Part shown: positions 4 through 56,129 of the stretch, in pieces
How positions within the stretch are numbered: the first letter of the stretch is position 1
How the letters are laid out: the number at the start of each line of letters is the position of its first letter
Source: Janibacter hoylei PVAS-1
Lineage (GTDB): Bacteria > Actinomycetota > Actinomycetes > Actinomycetales > Dermatophilaceae
Direction of reading: 5' to 3'
Assembly: GCF_000297495.1 (NCBI RefSeq)
Contig: NZ_ALWX01000068.1
Location: 1 to 64,000, forward strand
DNA length: 64,000 nt
Notes under the pieces: model-generated
What the model was told of the DNA's origin: nothing
The model's database searches: none
Seen by the model: the letters and a program-made list of their open reading frames with translations, nothing else
Position numbers and translations under genes: made by a program

Positions 4-816
4 TCACGCCGCGAGCGATAGCCGCCCAGAACGTGACTCGGTCCTGCCGCCACGCGACCGAGGGCCGTCCCGGTGACGGGATCTGTCCTCGATACGCACG
101 GACCCGCTTCTGCCGTGGGGTTGTTCCCATCGCTTCACCTCTCGATCAAGGTGTTGCGACGACCGGTTGAATTCGCCTTGCGAGCCTCGGTCGCTGTGCA
201 CGATGCACCCGGCCACGTCGGCGCCGTCAGCGGCGCGGCGTGCGACGGCTGAGTTCAGCGCGGTGACAGCCAGGTGCGACGTCATGCGTGAGTCGATGCT
301 GTAGCCCACGATCCGCCCGGAGCAGGCGTCCTTGATCGCGCAGAGGTACAGCTTGCCCTCACCGGTCCAGTGCTCAGTAATGTCGGTCAGCCACACCCGA
401 TTCGGTGCCGCCGCGCTGGTGAAGTCATGCGTGACGCGGCCCACCTCGTCCTCGACCGCGAGCCGGCCATCGTGCACCGGTGGTCCGGGCCGCGGACGGG
501 CCGAGCGCTTCTTCCCGAAGATCGACCACCAGGCGTTCGCTGAGCAGATCCGCCACGCCGTGCGAGCCGACATGCCCGTCCCGGCGTCGGCGGCTTCCTC
601 GTGGAGGTATCGGTAACCGAAGGCGGGGTCATCACGGTGAGCGTCGAACAACGCGTTCGCGCGATGCGCCCACGCCAGCTCGGAGGCGGTGACCGGGGAC
701 GTGAGCCACCGGTAGTACTGCGTACGACACAACTTCAGCACCCGGCACGTCACCGACACAGGCACCCGGATCCGGGCTCCCTTGCCAGCCAGCTCGCGGA
801 CGAGCGGGAACATCAT
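4..816 (-). CDS. IS3-family transposase OrfB (DDE integrase core). The C-terminal ~55 aa are atypical, and the third catalytic E is not recognisable.
   Basis: 'VWLTDITEH...GKLYLCAIKDACSGRIVGYSIDSRM...HSDRGSQ' matches the D..D part of the DDE core. The sequence after HSDRGSQ diverges from the expected SMSRKGN..DNA..ESFF pattern. The copy is probably 3'-degenerate or truncated. Confidence 0.7.
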   Translation of the reverse strand: MMFPLVRELAGKGARIRVPVSVTCRVLKLCRTQYYRWLTSPVTASELAWAHRANALFDAHRDDPAFGYRYLHEEAADAGTGMSARTAWRICSANAWWSIFGKKRSARPRPGPPVHDGRLAVEDEVGRVTHDFTSAAAPNRVWLTDITEHWTGEGKLYLCAIKDACSGRIVGYSIDSRMTSHLAVTALNSAVARRAADGADVAGCIVHSDRGSQGEFNRSSQHLDREVKRWEQPHGRSGSVRIEDRSRHRDGPRSRGGRTESRSGRLSLAA

Positions 817-1142
817 TTTGGGGGCAGGTTCGCCTGCGACAAGTACGCCGCCGCGCGCCGCAACACCTCGTTCTCTTGCTCCAGCAATCGGTTACGGCGC
901 TCGAGCTCACGCAGCTCGGCTGCCTGCTCACTCGTCACGGCCGGCGCGGTGCCGTCCTCGACGTCGGCGCGTTTGAGCCAGTTGGTCAGGCACGACTCGC
1001 TGATCCCGAAGTCAGCAGCAATCTGCTTCAACTGCTGACCCGGCTCACGGTTGCGAGCGACCCGCACGACATCGTCACGAAACTCTTTGGGGTAGGGCTT
1101 GGGCACGGTGTCCATCCTTCCAGCAGCGTCCCTCGACGCCAC
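813..1142 (-). CDS. IS3-family transposase OrfA (HTH).
   Basis: 109 aa. Contains '...LKQIAADFGISESCLTNWLKR...' HTH and a coiled-coil 'ELRELERRNRLLEQENEVLRRAAAYL' typical of IS3 OrfA. Its stop overlaps the orfB ATG (CCCCCAAAATGATG). Confidence 0.8.
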   Translation of the reverse strand: MASRDAAGRMDTVPKPYPKEFRDDVVRVARNREPGQQLKQIAADFGISESCLTNWLKRADVEDGTAPAVTSEQAAELRELERRNRLLEQENEVLRRAAAYLSQANLPPK

Positions 1143-1238: not shown

Positions 1239-3206
1239 TCAGGGTGCCTGGTCCGCGTCGTCGGCTGGGTCATCTACCGTCGGTTCGGACGTTGACGGCC
1301 CTGTGGCTGGCCATCTCTCGGACACGGCCCAGGTCGTGAGTGCAGCGAGTCGCTCCTCGATGGCCTTAGCGGTCCAGCTGGGCCATTTCTCGGCGACCTC
1401 GCGTTCGCTCGCCAAGGCTGCTGTGAAGTAGCACGGGGGCTGCGTCTGACCGGTCTTGCCGCGTTTCTCGACGTACTCCTTGTTGCTGTAGGAGCTGTTG
1501 TCCATCGTCAGAATCAAGTTGCCCAGCGAATGCGTGTGACTCTTTCGCTCATCGTCACTGAAGATGTCCCGCCAAGACCCCGCGTAAGTGGGCGACGCTT
1601 TGTCGATGTCTTTCGGGTTGCGGGGCAGGATGTGCTCGGTGGTCTTCTCAAAGTTCTTCGTGAAGGTCTCGAACGGCTTCAGTACGGCGACCGTCTTCCC
1701 CTTCGACAGTTCGTACTCATAGAGGACATACTTGTGGGAGCTCCGCACATACCAGTTGGTCTCCACCGTGAGGTTGTTTCGCACGAGGCTGTCCGGTGCG
1801 TACTCCCAGGTCAGTGAACCGACTCGCGTGACGGCGTCACCGATTGAGGTCGATCCCTTAAAGACCTGATGCGCCAGACCAGCCAGAGCCTGCCTGCCCG
1901 CGCCGGATCTACGCGCGCAGATGGCAAAAACGCGTGCCGCGAAGGTTTCGCACGCGACGAGTACATCTGCGTAGCCGGCGGCGTTGCCGGGGGACGCCAG
2001 ACGGGTCGCGAACAGTAGGGGGAGGAACTGAGCAACGACCCCGCTGCGGACAAGAGCTTGCGAGTTCCTGGACACGCGAGCGATGTCCGCGGGGTCGGCT
2101 GTCGACGATGCGAATGCTGTTGAGGTCCCCTCCAGATCGCGAAGGAACGCAGAGCATTGCCAGAGCTGGTCGACGTAGTCGGAGACGTCGTCGAACAGCC
2201 GCTGCCGCATTGCTTCTGGGTCGGTCCTGTCGCCTGCATCGTCATCGCGGAGGCGTTGAGAGCCGTGAACGTAGTGCGTACGTGGGAACTTCTTCTTGAT
2301 CGACTCAGACCGCTCCCACAGGCGGATGTTCGGCTCCTGGGTGGCTAGCCAGTGTGAACGGAGGAGTCGGTCCTCGCTGTCGGACGGGAGTCCAGCCAGG
2401 TTCTTGAACACGCCCGACCATCGTTCGTTGATCAGATCCGCGAGCTTCGTTCTGCGAACGTCGTCGAGCTGGGACGCGAGGTAGAGAAGGTAATTCTTGA
2501 TCTTCTCAAGATCGGTGAGGAGGATCCCGCGGTCGTTGAGCGTCTCGAAGATGACGCCCACTTCGGCAGTCGACTTGATCGGATAGACAAGCAACTGGAG
2601 ACCGGACGTGAGGCGGCGCCGGAGGTCCAGCAGGCGCCCTGCGGCGACTTCAGGTGCTGCACCCTCCACGAGTTCCACGAGTCGCTGGTCAAAGAAGGTC
2701 GCGGCACGGAGCAACCTGCGTGCAGACGCGATGGGGTCACTGGGTGCCGGAAGGTCTTCAATGATGTGATCGCGCCAGAAGCCTCGGAGGTCTGTCCCTA
2801 GTTGGAGCCGTGGCTCCTGCGTGCCCAGAAGTTGAATGCGCACGAGGGCGCCGATCTGACGCTTGGCTTCGAGTACGCCATCAGCCAGTCCCTCGTCCGT
2901 GACGCCCTGAATCTGGTCGAGTGCCTTCGCCAGACGAGTCATGAGGATCGTTACGGTCGTGAGACGCTGCTGACCATCGACGACCTCGTACTCCTTCAGA
3001 GTCTCGCCAGCTGACGTGGTCTTCTTATGTCCGGTCTCTCGCAACACCAGCGTGCCGGCGAAATGTTCGCCATCGCCAAGCAGGTCAAGGTCGCCCCACA
3101 GGTCGCCAAGTTGCTTGTCAGTCCAAGCGTACGGCCGCTGGTAGTCCGCAATGACGAAGGTCTTGTCGTCGAGCGCCTTTTTCAGCGACTCGTGTTCCTG
3201 CGGCAT
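1239..3206 (-). CDS. DUF262 (ParB-like, DGQQR) plus DUF1524 (His-Me/HNH-like) nuclease. This is a GmrSD-family type IV restriction-like protein.
   Basis: N-terminal 'IADYQRPYAWTDKQLGDLW...DGQQRLTT' (DUF262). C-terminal '...HILPRNP...HSLGNLILT' (DUF1524). The start was chosen at M58 of the 712-aa ORF (ATG at 3204-3206) because the upstream extension overlaps the macro gene. Confidence 0.75.
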   Translation of the reverse strand: MPQEHESLKKALDDKTFVIADYQRPYAWTDKQLGDLWGDLDLLGDGEHFAGTLVLRETGHKKTTSAGETLKEYEVVDGQQRLTTVTILMTRLAKALDQIQGVTDEGLADGVLEAKRQIGALVRIQLLGTQEPRLQLGTDLRGFWRDHIIEDLPAPSDPIASARRLLRAATFFDQRLVELVEGAAPEVAAGRLLDLRRRLTSGLQLLVYPIKSTAEVGVIFETLNDRGILLTDLEKIKNYLLYLASQLDDVRRTKLADLINERWSGVFKNLAGLPSDSEDRLLRSHWLATQEPNIRLWERSESIKKKFPRTHYVHGSQRLRDDDAGDRTDPEAMRQRLFDDVSDYVDQLWQCSAFLRDLEGTSTAFASSTADPADIARVSRNSQALVRSGVVAQFLPLLFATRLASPGNAAGYADVLVACETFAARVFAICARRSGAGRQALAGLAHQVFKGSTSIGDAVTRVGSLTWEYAPDSLVRNNLTVETNWYVRSSHKYVLYEYELSKGKTVAVLKPFETFTKNFEKTTEHILPRNPKDIDKASPTYAGSWRDIFSDDERKSHTHSLGNLILTMDNSSYSNKEYVEKRGKTGQTQPPCYFTAALASEREVAEKWPSWTAKAIEERLAALTTWAVSERWPATGPSTSEPTVDDPADDADQAP

Positions 3207-3207
3207 G

Positions 3208-3663
3208 TCAGTGAATCCAATCTTCGGCTTGGCTCGCCAGCGAGCGAGCGATCGCGGCATAGGTGGGCTGGCCGAATGCGACCAGGCGGGCTTCATCAAC
3301 AGCACTGGACGCAGCGTTGAGCGCCTCCACCGCCGCGGCGATTGCGTCTTCCTTCGGCCAGCCGTAGGTATCAGCACTGACTAGGGGGAAGGCGACACTG
3401 CGGGCACCGAGCTCGTCCGCGTGCCCCAAGGCACGCGTGTAGCGCGAGGTCAGGTGGTCTCGGTCGGTCTCGCCTGCCATCGTCCATCCGGTGTCGCCGG
3501 CGTCCAGTCCGTTGGGAAAGCGGGTGATGTAGTCCTCGGGGATCGCCGAGCCACCAGCCGTATGGATCGCCCCATCGACGCCTCGTATTCGCCGGTTTGC
3601 CGCGTTGACGACCGCATCCACCTCCTGGGTGGTGATGTCTCCCTCTACGACGGTGATCAACAC
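3208..3663 (-). CDS. Stand-alone macro domain protein (151 aa).
   Basis: 'VVEGDITTQEVDAVVNAANRRIRGVDGAIHTAGG' and '[29 protein letters not shown]' are macro-domain motifs. Its stop (TGA at 3208-3210) overlaps the GmrSD ATG as ATGA, implying translational coupling. Confidence 0.8.
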   Translation of the reverse strand: MLITVVEGDITTQEVDAVVNAANRRIRGVDGAIHTAGGSAIPEDYITRFPNGLDAGDTGWTMAGETDRDHLTSRYTRALGHADELGARSVAFPLVSADTYGWPKEDAIAAAVEALNAASSAVDEARLVAFGQPTYAAIARSLASQAEDWIH

Positions 3664-3860
3664 GCCGGCAATACTAGTGGGAACCGCCGACAGCGCGAGG
3701 ACGAGTTTGCGTTTCCCGAGCCTTCCTTCTTGACCACACCGCGCGTCCTCTTGGGCAGGTCAATCGGTGGCTGGTAGTCGTCGATGCGGTCGTAGACGTC
3801 GTAGTTGAGACTGCGCTCGGCGAGTTCTATATGCCCTTGGGTGGCGGCGACCTTGATCAG
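3664..3860 (-). pseudogene. Start-less ORF fragment immediately upstream of the macro gene, likely a degraded upstream gene.
   Basis: The minus-strand frame reads 'LNLIKVAATQGHIELAERSLNYDVYDRIDDYQPPIDLPKRTRGVVKKEG...' and is preceded by an in-frame stop. There is no ATG or GTG start. It ends at the macro start. Confidence 0.3.
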
Positions 3861-4800
3861 GTTGAGTCAGTTGACCTCGTCCTACGGCGCTGCCTCACAG
3901 GCGATCCCTGAGGCCACCTGGCGGTGTCGAGGTGGGACTGGGCTTGGCTGCGACAGCGACGATGTGGGCGCATGCGCTCGACGATTTCGTGGAGCTGGTT
4001 GCCCTCGGAGAGCCACGCCCACCCGTCCTTGCGGGGGTTGCTGATCGGCTTCCTGGCCACGAGACTGAGCTCGAGCTTCAGGCCGTTGATCCCGTCCGCT
4101 CCGCAAGCTTGGCCTCGGGCTCTCAGGAGGCGGAAGAGAGCTACGTCGACGAGGAGACCGTGCAACGTATAGCCGTTGTCGACAACGTTCTCCGGCGTGT
4201 TCAGGCAGCTTCTCGGTGCATGAGTTCGCCCGTGCGAGGGTCCGCGCCGAACCAGTCCCGGATCGTGCTCAGGTCGGTGCGCTCCCGGGACCGCTTGATG
4301 CCGGACGCCGCGGCGAGGTTGCGGTTGAAGACGCGCTCGGGGTGGAGCGAGAGATCGTCGACGGTGCGCCACGGGCCCGAGGTGCGGGTCGTTTCTCCTG
4401 CGGTTACAACGCCGCGTCTGCGGCTTCCCAGGCACCTGCTCCTTCGGTGTGTGCTCATCCTCGTTTCCAAGGTCACGAGCCTCTATAGGGCCGAGTGCGG
4501 TTCAAAGGTCGACGCGCAGGTCACCATAGCTTCGACGGTGGCGACCGCGCTATCGACATGATCGGCTGAAAGGTCGTCTAGACAGGGTGCGCAGAGTCCC
4601 TGTCCTCGACCGCCCGTGTGACTGCTGCCCCTCGTCGAGTGGCGCTGTACGGCCCTTCCTATTGGGTGGCAGGAGGCACGGTTCATGCCCGAGATGGACC
4701 TACCAGCCGAAGCACCCGTGACCGAGGCTTCACCCCGTCTGGAGACGGACGACGAGTTCGCAGCGGCGTAAGGCGAGTGATGGCGGAGGAGATCGGTGCA
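3857..4800. other. Decayed, lower-GC region carrying only short ORF fragments on both strands, with no intact gene.
   Basis: Fragments such as '...SNPRKDGWAWLSEGNQLHEIVERM...' and '...ERVFNRNLAAASGIKRSRERTDLSTIRDWFGADPRTGELMHREAA' have no recognisable full domain. GC is visibly lower than in the core region. Confidence 0.3.
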
Positions 4801-4821: not shown

Positions 4822-5412
4822 TCAAGCGGAATCGAGGGCTTGCTGAGCAACACTTCGAGATGAGGCCCACGTCTTGTGTGCCATACGAAGGCCGAGCCGC
4901 TGCGACATCCGAGGGTGCTCGCGCTCCATTCGTGTGTAGGCCGACTTTAAGTTGGTCGTGTACAGCAGATCGCGCAGGAGCAGGACCTCGAACGCGGCCG
5001 CCTCGACGAAGTCCACCGTCTTGGTGTACCCGACGACTGCCCTGGCGTTGGTGGCCCGACAGAGGTCTATGAGCTCTTGATCCTTGGCGGCCATCGTCGA
5101 GCACGAGGCGAAGAACAAGACCTTGTCCTCACACCTGCTCCCGAGAATCTCAGCGAACTCCTTGATCGTCACGCCTTCATCGCCGAACCAGAGCTGCCCA
5201 CGAGCGCCGTGACAGACGAAGTAGCCGATGGGCATCGAGGTGAGCCGACGCCATTTCTTTGCATAGAACTCGAGGGCGTCCCTTGTCGCGACGTTGCGGT
5301 GGACGTAGGGGGTCCCTTCGCAGTCCTGGAGAAGGCCGAGCACTGGCTCGACGGTCCGTCGGTCGCGGGCAGGGCCCCATTCACCTTCGAAGCAGTAGAT
5401 CCCTTGTGCCAT
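4822..5412 (-). CDS. Hypothetical protein with a caspase/hemoglobinase-fold-like (clan CD) His...Cys arrangement.
   Basis: 196 aa. A beta-strand then HG ('IGYFVCHGARG') is followed ~35 aa later by a hydrophobic strand plus Cys ('KVLFFASCSTM'). This mirrors the caspase 'SHG ... QACRG' order. It lies in the lower-GC island. Confidence 0.3.
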   Translation of the reverse strand: MAQGIYCFEGEWGPARDRRTVEPVLGLLQDCEGTPYVHRNVATRDALEFYAKKWRRLTSMPIGYFVCHGARGQLWFGDEGVTIKEFAEILGSRCEDKVLFFASCSTMAAKDQELIDLCRATNARAVVGYTKTVDFVEAAAFEVLLLRDLLYTTNLKSAYTRMEREHPRMSQRLGLRMAHKTWASSRSVAQQALDSA

Positions 5413-5516
5413 GTATGAACACTTGTGGTCCCTCGGTGGGGTGTCAAACGCTCAGCCGGATCATTGTCGGTGGTCCCACCTACGCTGTGGAGCAGGTCGA
5501 CGGAGGGGAGTGGCTG

Positions 5517-6386
5517 ATGTTCGATCAGCGGGTCGAGGCAGCGTGGAGGGACTTCCACGAGCGTCTCGTGGTGGCCATCGAACGGTTCGGCGAGGGCGAG
5601 ATCTTCCGGATCTCACTCGACCGCACGAGCGTCTACGAGGCGGGGGACGCTCCCTTCGTCGAGCTCAACGTCGTCCTGCCGCAGGTGCTCGTCGAGGTCG
5701 CCTCCAACATGACCTTGGCTCGTACGTGGCGCATGAGTCGCACCCAGCAGGCGAGGGTCCGCCGGCTGGGCATGGCGTGCCCGACGCGGCAGGAGCCGAC
5801 CTACGGCAAGTACTACGACATCACGCGGCCCGACGAGGCGGCCGCTGCGGTTATCACGGCACTGCGCGAAGGGTTCGGTGTCCTCGACCCGGCGCTCCTC
5901 ACCAGCCCGAGCCCCGTCCTGACTCCACCCACGCGCGAGCCCTGGGAGACCAGCCCGCTGCTCGCCGACGGCGCCCGACCCACCAGCCGGGCAGAGGTCA
6001 ATGCCCTCGTCGCCATCGCCCTTCGCCCGCTCGTGGGTGAGGTGGACACCACGGATGACGGTGACGCCATCGTCCACTTCCCCGGCACGTCGATCCTGGT
6101 GCGGCCGTCGAGGCGCGCACCGCGCATCCGCATGTGCTGCACGCTGCCGCACCACGAGCGTGACCTCGACGAGGCCACCCGGATCGCCCAGCGGCTCAAC
6201 GGGTGCATGCACGCGCTCAAGTTCGTCGTGCTCGACGACGAGGACTTCCTCGTCATGGTCGACATGCTCGCCAGACCCTTCGTGCCCGAGCACGTGCTGG
6301 AGCACGTGGAGCACCTCTTCCGGATCATCGACGGCTGGGAGGACGAGTTCCTCCCCGAGGCGCGCGATCGACAGGAGACGACGTGA
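5517..6386 (+). CDS. Tandem YbjN/T3SS-chaperone-like ('TY-Chap') domain protein.
   Basis: 289 aa from ATG 5517. It has two similar halves with an acidic C-terminus. Its stop overlaps the GTG of the next gene (GTGA), indicating an operon. Confidence 0.4.
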   Translation: MFDQRVEAAWRDFHERLVVAIERFGEGEIFRISLDRTSVYEAGDAPFVELNVVLPQVLVEVASNMTLARTWRMSRTQQARVRRLGMACPTRQEPTYGKYYDITRPDEAAAAVITALREGFGVLDPALLTSPSPVLTPPTREPWETSPLLADGARPTSRAEVNALVAIALRPLVGEVDTTDDGDAIVHFPGTSILVRPSRRAPRIRMCCTLPHHERDLDEATRIAQRLNGCMHALKFVVLDDEDFLVMVDMLARPFVPEHVLEHVEHLFRIIDGWEDEFLPEARDRQETT

Positions 6387-55614: not shown

Positions 55615-56129
55615 ATGGTGCCCATGCCACAGCTCACCGCAGTCCGGGGCGACATCACGACCCAGCAGGTCGACGCGATCGTCAACGCCGCCAACTCCGC
55701 CATGCGTGGTGGTGGGGGAGTCGACGGGGGCGATCCACCGCGCGGGTGGCCCGGCCGTGCTCGAGGACTGCATCGCCCGCTTCCCCCGCGGCCTGGCCAC
55801 GGGTGATGCGGGGTGGACGACGGCAGGGGACCTCCCTTCGCGCTGGGTGATCCACACGGTCGGGCCCAACCACGCTGCGGGACAACGCGATCGCTCGCTG
55901 CTCGTCTCGTGCTACCGCCGCTGCCTCGAGGTGGCCGACGAGCTGGGGGGCGCGCTCGGTCGCCTTCCCGCTCGTCAGCGCCGGCATCTACGGCTGGCCC
56001 AAGGACGACGCGATCGCCGCAGCGGTGGAGACGATCCGGTCGGCACCGACGGCCGTCGAGGAGGCGCGCATCGTCGCCTTCGACGCGGCCACCTTCGCAC
56101 AGGTGGAAAAAAGTGCAAGGTTCAACTAA
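55615..56129 (+). CDS. Macro domain protein (MacroD/YmdB-like), with two G-run frameshifts (~55720, ~55945).
   Basis: '[29 protein letters not shown]' then '[14 protein letters not shown]...WVIHTVGPN...' then '[27 protein letters not shown]' read in three frames. It is a paralog of the island macro gene at 3208..3663. Confidence 0.75.

Follow-up and report, generated by a model that had tools for sequence, protein, structure and literature searches.

Does a macro-domain gene directly upstream of a GmrSD-like nuclease gene form a working defence module with it, or is such a pair the remainder of something larger? The question is raised by a locus in Janibacter hoylei PVAS-1, on the 64,000-nucleotide stretch of contig NZ_ALWX01000068.1 that we analysed (the window). 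On its minus strand, a macro open reading frame (ORF) of 151 amino acids (aa) ends one nucleotide (nt) before the start of a nuclease gene, and a first-pass annotation had read the two as a two-component defence or toxin-regulator pair, with ADP-ribose removal gating or protecting the nuclease. Both genes are present where that annotation put them, the macro protein being 100% identical to EKA60221.1 / RWU83845.1 and the nuclease to EKA60220.1. We are fairly confident of a different reading, in which the window carries a solitary GmrSD nuclease on a decayed island and the macro ORF is a non-enzymatic leftover. The nuclease is probably a self-sufficient, embedded gene, and the pair as found here probably a relic. 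The features concerned are as follows, with the evidence for each in brackets; dN/dS is the ratio of nonsynonymous to synonymous substitution rates.

1239..3206, minus strand: GmrSD-like nuclease gene, intact, 655 aa (Pfam, PADLOC, motifs, dN/dS)
3204..3210, minus strand: stop-start junction TGAcATG with a 1-nt spacer (sequence; kept in loci L001, L002 and L169)
3208..3663, minus strand: degenerate macro ORF of MacroD/YmdB type, 151 aa (Pfam, alignment, NCBIfam, dN/dS)

The junction reads cacTGAcATGccg, with the macro stop at 3210-3208, the spacer base at 3207 and the nuclease ATG at 3206-3204. The ATGA overlap and the nuclease length of 656 aa given earlier are thereby corrected to TGAcATG and to 655 aa, the latter in agreement with EKA60220.1 at NCBI.

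The macro gene is an inactive-looking remnant

The 151-aa ORF matches Pfam Macro (E=6e-13), at profile positions 69-117 only. Its closest BLASTP relatives are Nocardioides-type YmdB-like proteins (59-70% identity overall, 67-80% over aligned positions), the other top homologues are 162-193 aa long and named O-acetyl-ADP-ribose deacetylase (YmdB type) by their sources, and its top PDB matches are MacroD-type (PDB relatives are DR_2288, MacroD2 and E. coli YmdB). Aligned with nine relatives, the window protein shows two in-frame deletions. The first, of 9 nt in a GGN run between 3585 and 3584, removes GGG from the RGGGGVDG found in all nine relatives and leaves R---GVDG. The second, of 54 nt between 3476 and 3475, removes 18 aa, GDLPAKWVIHVVGPNYNA, a stretch of conserved core that includes WVIHVVGP. 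Direct repeats of 8 bp, GCAGGCGA, bracket the deleted 54 nt, and in the nucleotide alignment both copies are still present in L002; this is the signature of slippage between repeats, by which the deletion would have arisen.

Substitutions add to the damage. The diphosphate loop SAG[IV]YG has become SADTYG through G98D (codon 3372-3370) and I99T, G98 being otherwise invariant in the nine relatives, and two cysteines that the relatives almost always keep have been substituted. MacroD enzymes cradle the distal ribose in a Gly-rich loop between β3 and α1 and bind the diphosphate with a P-loop-like β6-α4 loop, which has G132 and V133 at the equivalent positions (PMC5413906); the catalytic loop and the diphosphate loop of this type are both damaged in the window macro. 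The family nearest to it is MacroD/YmdB (NCBIfam NF001664), but it lacks the catalytic-loop glycines and the 18 aa, and scores 105.6 bits in two pieces against a cut-off of 200 and 196-206 for intact relatives. Its dN/dS is 0.51 (dS 0.20, window versus L002) where other macro pairs give 0.12-0.19, and a three-taxon split of pairwise dN places ~0.098 on the window branch and ~0.005 on that of L002. So the gene first described as a stand-alone macro gene is there as an ORF of the length given and with a Pfam match, but in degenerate form. It is, as far as its residues tell, an inactive-looking remnant, and its protein would be catalytically dead; an inactive remnant was what the first-pass annotation had itself named as speaking against its pair.

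That the macro only looks short, through an error of assembly or sequencing, and is in truth intact is extremely improbable. Homopolymer-type frameshifts do occur in another macro gene of the same assembly, at 55.6 kb, but the deletions here are clean, in-frame losses of 9 and 54 nt with no homopolymer slips. Moreover, ~20% of aligned residues differ from L002, invariant positions included, and the same 151-aa protein stands under two GenBank accessions (which may share reads).

The nuclease gene is intact and under purifying selection

The first-pass annotation was right about the domain pair of the nuclease: Pfam GmrSD_N (DUF262, 4.4e-28) spans residues 9-241 and GmrSD_C (DUF1524, His-Me finger, 3.9e-16) residues 475-626. 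Both domain hallmarks of the GmrSD family, the DGQQR N-domain and the His-Me C-domain, are in place. The nucleotide-hydrolysis motif DGQQR lies at residues 77-81, and EHILP (524-528) and GNLIL...DN (562-570) are invariant across 25 homologues. The start, MPQEHESLKK, is common to the window, L002 and L001. Full-length dN/dS is 0.088-0.097 (window versus L169 and L001), and that of the N-terminus is 0.09 (window versus L002, dS 0.18). The gene is intact and under purifying selection.

NCBIfam returned no named family for this protein, and its best PADLOC matches are the HEC-06 models (3.2e-47, 159 bits in two stretches, the best covering residues 8-291 only). HEC-06 is a single-gene GmrSD-like defence that requires its DGQQR and EH motifs (Payne et al. 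2024, bioRxiv 10.1101/2024.01.29.577857). HEC-06 and the wider GmrSD/BrxU/SspE family are the nearest known counterparts of the window protein. It shares their layout, a DUF262 domain bearing DGQQR and a DUF1524 domain bearing an EHxxP His-Me motif, joined by a linker within ~650 aa, although PADLOC aligns it best in the N-terminal half and sufficiency was shown for HEC-06 itself. The window nuclease carries the motifs that HEC-06 requires and most likely works alone, like HEC-06, which defends as a lone gene, and other GmrSD-type enzymes. We infer that it is expressed and active; its ParB-like DUF262 NTPase domain would drive the His-Me nuclease against foreign, probably modified, DNA.

A putative ancestral module and its erosion

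Metagenomic loci L001, L005, L006 and L002 show what the pair may have looked like before decay. Each has a 172-aa macro gene, then TGAcATG, then GmrSD, the latter 86% identical to the window protein over its full length (L001/L005/L006) or 96.5% over the N-terminal 172 aa (L002). On the 363-kb scaffold of L005 the genes run from a Tad-like operon (SAF, T2SSE, two T2SSF and three TadE genes) through a 1034-aa LysM protein, Macro, GmrSD, a small unknown ORF, REase-ARP/PDDEXK_13, Prim-Pol, ParB_N and Peptidase_M23 to DUF6112, a gene set that looks like a mobile element; the intact LysM gene (L005:6366-9470) is the last of the Tad-pilus-like operon. Elements of the L001 type carry Macro, GmrSD and REase-ARP as their only genes of interest here, with no ARG.

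The two flanks of the window pair are:

3664..4362, minus strand: LysM-protein pseudogene stub (tblastn, blastn extent, nucleotide alignment)
4..1142, minus strand: IS3-family element, orfA (HTH_Tnp_1) and orfB (rve) (Pfam)

The stub amounts to the last ~235 codons of the LysM gene, with 1-nt indels and an 11-nt deletion, so that tblastn matches fall in three frames; homology ends abruptly at ~4362. On the other side the IS3 element starts less than 100 nt past the GmrSD stop and occupies the place where relatives have the small unknown gene (u175) and REase-ARP. No homology to the relatives' sequence extends beyond that stop (blastn extent), and the window has no homologue of REase-ARP or u175. 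Both the adjacent IS3 element and the decayed gene fragments upstream of the macro had been noted in the first-pass annotation.

From these comparisons the window would hold what erosion has left of a cargo module once carried by a mobile element of actinobacteria, with an ancestral order of Tad-like operon, LysM protein, Macro, GmrSD, small unknown gene, REase-ARP, Prim-Pol and ParB. The LysM gene would have been reduced to a frameshifted stub, and two in-frame deletions, the longer through slippage at the 8-bp repeats, would have stripped the macro of its catalytic glycine loop and of a segment of conserved core; the IS3 element would have replaced everything after GmrSD, which alone has stayed intact and under purifying selection.

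Locus L169 records a second, independent macro loss with GmrSD kept. Its nuclease is 89% identical to that of the window, and only ~45 C-terminal macro residues are left, fused to unrelated sequence in an 82-aa ORF that ends exactly at TGAcATG. That GmrSD was retained through both of these natural losses speaks against any dependence of the nuclease on the macro.

We therefore consider a working pair in the window, in which removal of ADP-ribose gates or protects the nuclease, very unlikely. In its favour, both genes point the same way, the TGAcATG between them is conserved, the macro frame has stayed open with dN/dS below 1, and the adjacency recurs in relatives; against this stand the deleted glycine loop and core segment and the mutated diphosphate loop, a score of half the equivalog cut-off, a rate raised on the window branch only, the loss of the macro with retention of GmrSD in L169, and the lack of an ADP-ribosyltransferase in the locus. 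The gating proposal also fares badly beyond the window, as relatives at 56-63% identity occur without any ADP-ribose gene (see below) and HEC-06 works alone.

An open but decayed frame might have been kept for another reason: as a translated leader, whose stop at TGAcATG is needed for termination-reinitiation on GmrSD and whose frame was preserved after enzymatic function was lost. This we judge unlikely. Both window deletions are in frame, the otherwise unrelated 82-aa ORF of L169, with its macro remnant, stops precisely at the junction, and the GmrSD start is preceded by only a weak Shine-Dalgarno-like sequence in the macro-less lineages and in L002 and L001. However, two in-frame deletions are expected by chance in about 1 in 9 instances, only two cases are at hand, and locus L174 has a strong GGAGGAG before its ATG. 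In L170 and some other loci a long intergenic gap precedes GmrSD, so that coupling is not a requirement of the family.

Some points weigh against a solitary, functional nuclease beside a dead macro. (i) The operon is truncated, and a promoter and terminator scan found no recognisable promoter, so that GmrSD could be silent and only recently orphaned. (ii) The macro dN/dS is 0.5, not 1.0, and with both deletions in frame some residual selection on the ORF is possible. (iii) AlphaFold2 models the window macro with low confidence at residues 21-64, and adds nothing on the damage because the intact 172-aa macro, modelled as a control from the same 10-sequence alignment, came out equally poor. (iv) With homopolymer-type frameshifts elsewhere in the assembly, the single-base indels of the LysM stub may partly be sequencing errors; the deletions of 9, 11 and 54 nt and the truncation cannot be.

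Two further ideas were dropped. A DarTG-like mechanism was ruled out, with no transferase in the locus and a macro of YmdB type: the locus resembles DarTG in having a macro gene beside a DNA-targeting defence gene, but DarT is missing, the gene beside the macro encodes a nuclease, and the macro belongs to the MacroD/YmdB type, not to the DarG type that had been suggested. Pfam and PADLOC showed no ADP-ribosyltransferase domain in the ORFs flanking the pair, and the related loci have none either. A functional tie of the macro to the LysM/Tad operon was set aside, as L174 and L170 combine Macro, GmrSD and REase-ARP without LysM or Tad genes.

ADP-ribose genes around more distant relatives

The nuclease of the window belongs to a clade whose context we surveyed over ~10 lineages above 56% GmrSD identity, and several of these, with GmrSD proteins 61-63% identical to that of the window (L170, L173 and L174/L175), lie among genes of ADP-ribose processing. 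In L174/L175 (61%) GmrSD follows Macro and overlaps it by 8 nt, at ATGCCTAA, with GGAGGAG ahead of the overlap; the pair is accompanied by RNase_H_2, NT5C, ARG-DSPc, TY-Chap3/1, a small unknown gene and REase-ARP. In L170, TY-Chap, ARG-DSPc and two more genes are divergent from NrtR_WHD, GmrSD, REase-ARP and Macro, in that order and with an 8-nt overlap at Macro. In L173, ARG and TY-Chap are divergent from an ORF joining NrtR_WHD to GmrSD_N, which REase-ARP follows. Further away, L023 has ARPP-1, ARG-DSPc and then a GmrSD of 43-44% identity, and L015 the same ARG gene upstream. Adjacency of macro and GmrSD does then recur in other genomes, as the first-pass annotation had asked: with the TGAcATG junction in L001/L005/L006 and L002, with the 8-nt overlap in L174/L175, and in L170 in the order GmrSD, REase-ARP, Macro.

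The gene set of L170, L173, L174 and L023 is the ARG-centric system of Iyer et al. 2022 (PMC9503650, Viruses 14:1977). Section 3.8 of that paper predicts that such systems reverse phage-made ADP-ribosylation, with an NrtR or WYL regulator as the ADP-ribose sensor, TY chaperones assisting, Macro or NADAR as accessories, and nucleases, including a rapidly evolving REase, as effectors. The four loci carry ARG fused to an R-P (DSPc) phosphatase, the NrtR-type regulator, TY-Chap1/3, ARPP-1, Macro and REase-ARP, and no ADP-ribosyltransferase. The idea that the architecture was undescribed thus holds in part: conflict systems with Macro and nuclease effectors had been predicted in the section cited, while GmrSD, DUF262 and ParB do not appear in the paper's text (as distinct from its figures). 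Our literature search returned nothing on a macrodomain with GmrSD and nothing on REase-ARP.

The window itself differs from these systems. It has no ARG (phmmer with three seeds over the 64 kb), none of the associated phosphatase and no homologue of NrtR or REase-ARP; neighbouring ORFs gave no Pfam match to NrtR or WYL and no ARPP was noted there, WYL and ARPP not having been searched window-wide. What it has of their accessory genes is the degenerate Macro and a TY-Chap gene only 25% identical to that of L170. Judged by the neighbourhoods of their relatives, the window macro and GmrSD descend from accessory genes of the ARG-centric type.

Could GmrSD be, in the intact loci, an integrated effector arm of a system that senses and removes ADP-ribose (Macro, ARG, NrtR-type regulator, TY-Chap and REase-ARP)? 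Sensing or reversal of phage-made ADP-ribosylation would then control or protect the nucleases. We regard this as possible but doubtful. GmrSD is interleaved with the system genes in four different orders and at tight spacings (gaps of 1 and 31 nt, overlaps of 8 nt), one ORF apparently fuses NrtR_WHD to GmrSD_N (L173), ARPP-1 and ARG-DSPc lie upstream even of a GmrSD only 43-44% identical, and the model in section 3.8 of PMC9503650 foresees nuclease effectors. Yet the same clade occurs in BREX/Pgl-like and helicase-methylase loci, GmrSD has outlived its partners twice, HEC-06 suffices as a single gene, and the survey, at ~10 lineages above 56% identity, is small. For the intact relatives, the macro losses, the varied hosts and the sufficiency of HEC-06 favour an independent nested gene over an integrated effector. 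In the more specific form of the idea, GmrSD and REase-ARP would be bona fide effectors in relatives of the L174, L170 and L001 types, and Macro and ARG would strip phage-made ADP-ribose off host targets, perhaps the nucleases themselves or DNA, and would in this way protect or license GmrSD, or else GmrSD would act on ADP-ribosylated DNA as its modified substrate; to this we give rather little credence.

Relatives without ADP-ribose genes

An independent, nested gene would be expected to turn up in other company as well, and it does. In the locus sequences examined, no ADP-ribose gene accompanies GmrSD in L007/8 (62%), where it lies among helicases, in L177 (63%), with a SNF2-type helicase, an AAA ATPase and an Eco57I-type methylase nearby, or in L009/10 (59%) and L176 (56%), where no partner of any kind was found. 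At 41-43% identity, L012 and L018-L020 adjoin PglX-like methylases and protein kinases, a BREX/Pgl-like context. No MacroD-type macro lay within 4 kb in any of 78 metagenome loci (mostly 22-48% identical) or 80 viral loci. Because the 78 metagenome loci lacked a macro, our first impression was of no conservation, which the relatives at 56-63% overturned. A genome-contig search with the single GmrSD protein gave one distant cyanobacterial match only, plasmid tblastn two relatives only (27-29% identical), and the viral-contig scan only distant DUF262 relatives, none near a MacroD-type macro.

In this the clade resembles, by analogy of context, the embedded GmrSD genes of BREX (BrxU) and Hma (HEC-05, HEC-06): like relatives of the window protein, HEC-05, HEC-06 and BrxU are nested in other defence systems, but the HEC-06 study describes no ADP-ribose-processing neighbourhoods, where the window clade is found. 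We would describe the clade as a promiscuous embedded defence gene, with ADP-ribose systems as one of several recurrent hosts.

For the genome of J. hoylei this leaves a decaying island on which one ordinary-looking nuclease of GmrSD/HEC-06 type survives, a matter of little importance. Of wider bearing is the recurrence of the clade, in several gene orders, inside ARG/Macro/NrtR/TY-Chap/REase-ARP neighbourhoods, whose proposed role in countering phage ADP-ribosyltransferases on the host's behalf comes from computation only. GmrSD-like genes lend themselves to experiment and have been validated as defences, so that the association gives a practical way to test whether these neighbourhoods act against phage and whether ADP-ribose removal and DNA restriction cooperate. 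If GmrSD were indeed an effector arm, the predicted ARG-centric systems would gain a tractable, validated effector family, and a mobile mini-system of Macro, GmrSD and REase-ARP would be defined, of which the window would be a natural knock-out. As it stands, the family-level link of the clade to ADP-ribose genes is a modest lead drawn from gene neighbourhoods.

Other features of the window

As first annotated, the pair lies in a stretch of lower GC (0.60-0.65 over ~1-5.5 kb, versus 0.69-0.78 beyond 5500). A tRNA scan gave nothing usable to define island borders, and no PADLOC model matches the macro or the neighbouring ORFs. Three more features were recorded:

4822..5412, minus strand: DUF6642 gene at the far end of the low-GC stretch (Pfam, GC profile)
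5259-6386, plus strand: chaperone-like gene with TY-Chap3 and TY-Chap1 at the edge of the low-GC stretch (Pfam)
55,624-56,114, plus strand: second YmdB-type macro gene, frame-split (similarity to the L001 macro)

The DUF6642 gene shares the strand of the pair and is not present in the related loci. Divergent from it is the TY-Chap gene, of a family named from ARG-centric systems; no ARG follows it, and a tie to the macro-GmrSD relic would be tentative. Translation of the IS3 orfB (4-816, minus strand) becomes unrelated after HSDRGSQ, and its Pfam rve match ends at profile position 77 of 102, which may mean that the transposase is truncated, or has a frameshift, close to the end of the window.

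With ~70% identity to the macro of L001, the second macro gene lies in a context that looks like housekeeping, between ORFs that resemble an M20 peptidase and a GST (so named from their translations alone). Its coding sequence is spread over three frames, both shifts falling at G-runs, GGTGGGGGAG and CTGGGGGGCG, which could reflect homopolymer sequencing error or a real pseudogene; in the latter case the window would hold no intact macro of this type.

Further observations in related loci

A few peculiarities of the related loci are worth recording: (i) The REase-ARP/PDDEXK_13 gene of L001 (5398-6407; also in L005 and L006) matches that of L170 in two frames, with the shift near 6087-6099, and could be a pseudogene or reflect an assembly error; the source's gene caller annotated its last 111 aa only, plus a probably spurious ORF on the opposite strand. 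(ii) The ORF of L173 (7001-9298) encodes 765 aa, an NrtR winged-helix domain and GmrSD_N without GmrSD_C, and is either a real regulator-nuclease fusion or truncation or a metagenome-assembly indel artefact. (iii) In L177 (8001-9936), GmrSD_N (509 aa) and GmrSD_C (143 aa) are separate ORFs overlapping by 26 nt, probably through a frameshift. (iv) Three loci that differ in gene order (L174 7494-8021, L170 9540-10088, L001 5086-5358) each encode, adjacent to REase-ARP or Macro, a small protein of ~175-182 aa with no Pfam match, which may be an unrecognised component of the modules. (v) The intact 172-aa macro gene of L005 (9481-9999) was missed by the source's gene finder, so that surveys relying on called genes would miss some macro-GmrSD pairs. 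(vi) The closest macro outside such elements lies in L003 (4980-6498), on a 458-kb contig that resembles a Nocardioides-type chromosome, 10 nt after a bacterial type IB topoisomerase gene, an arrangement that may be a conserved pair.

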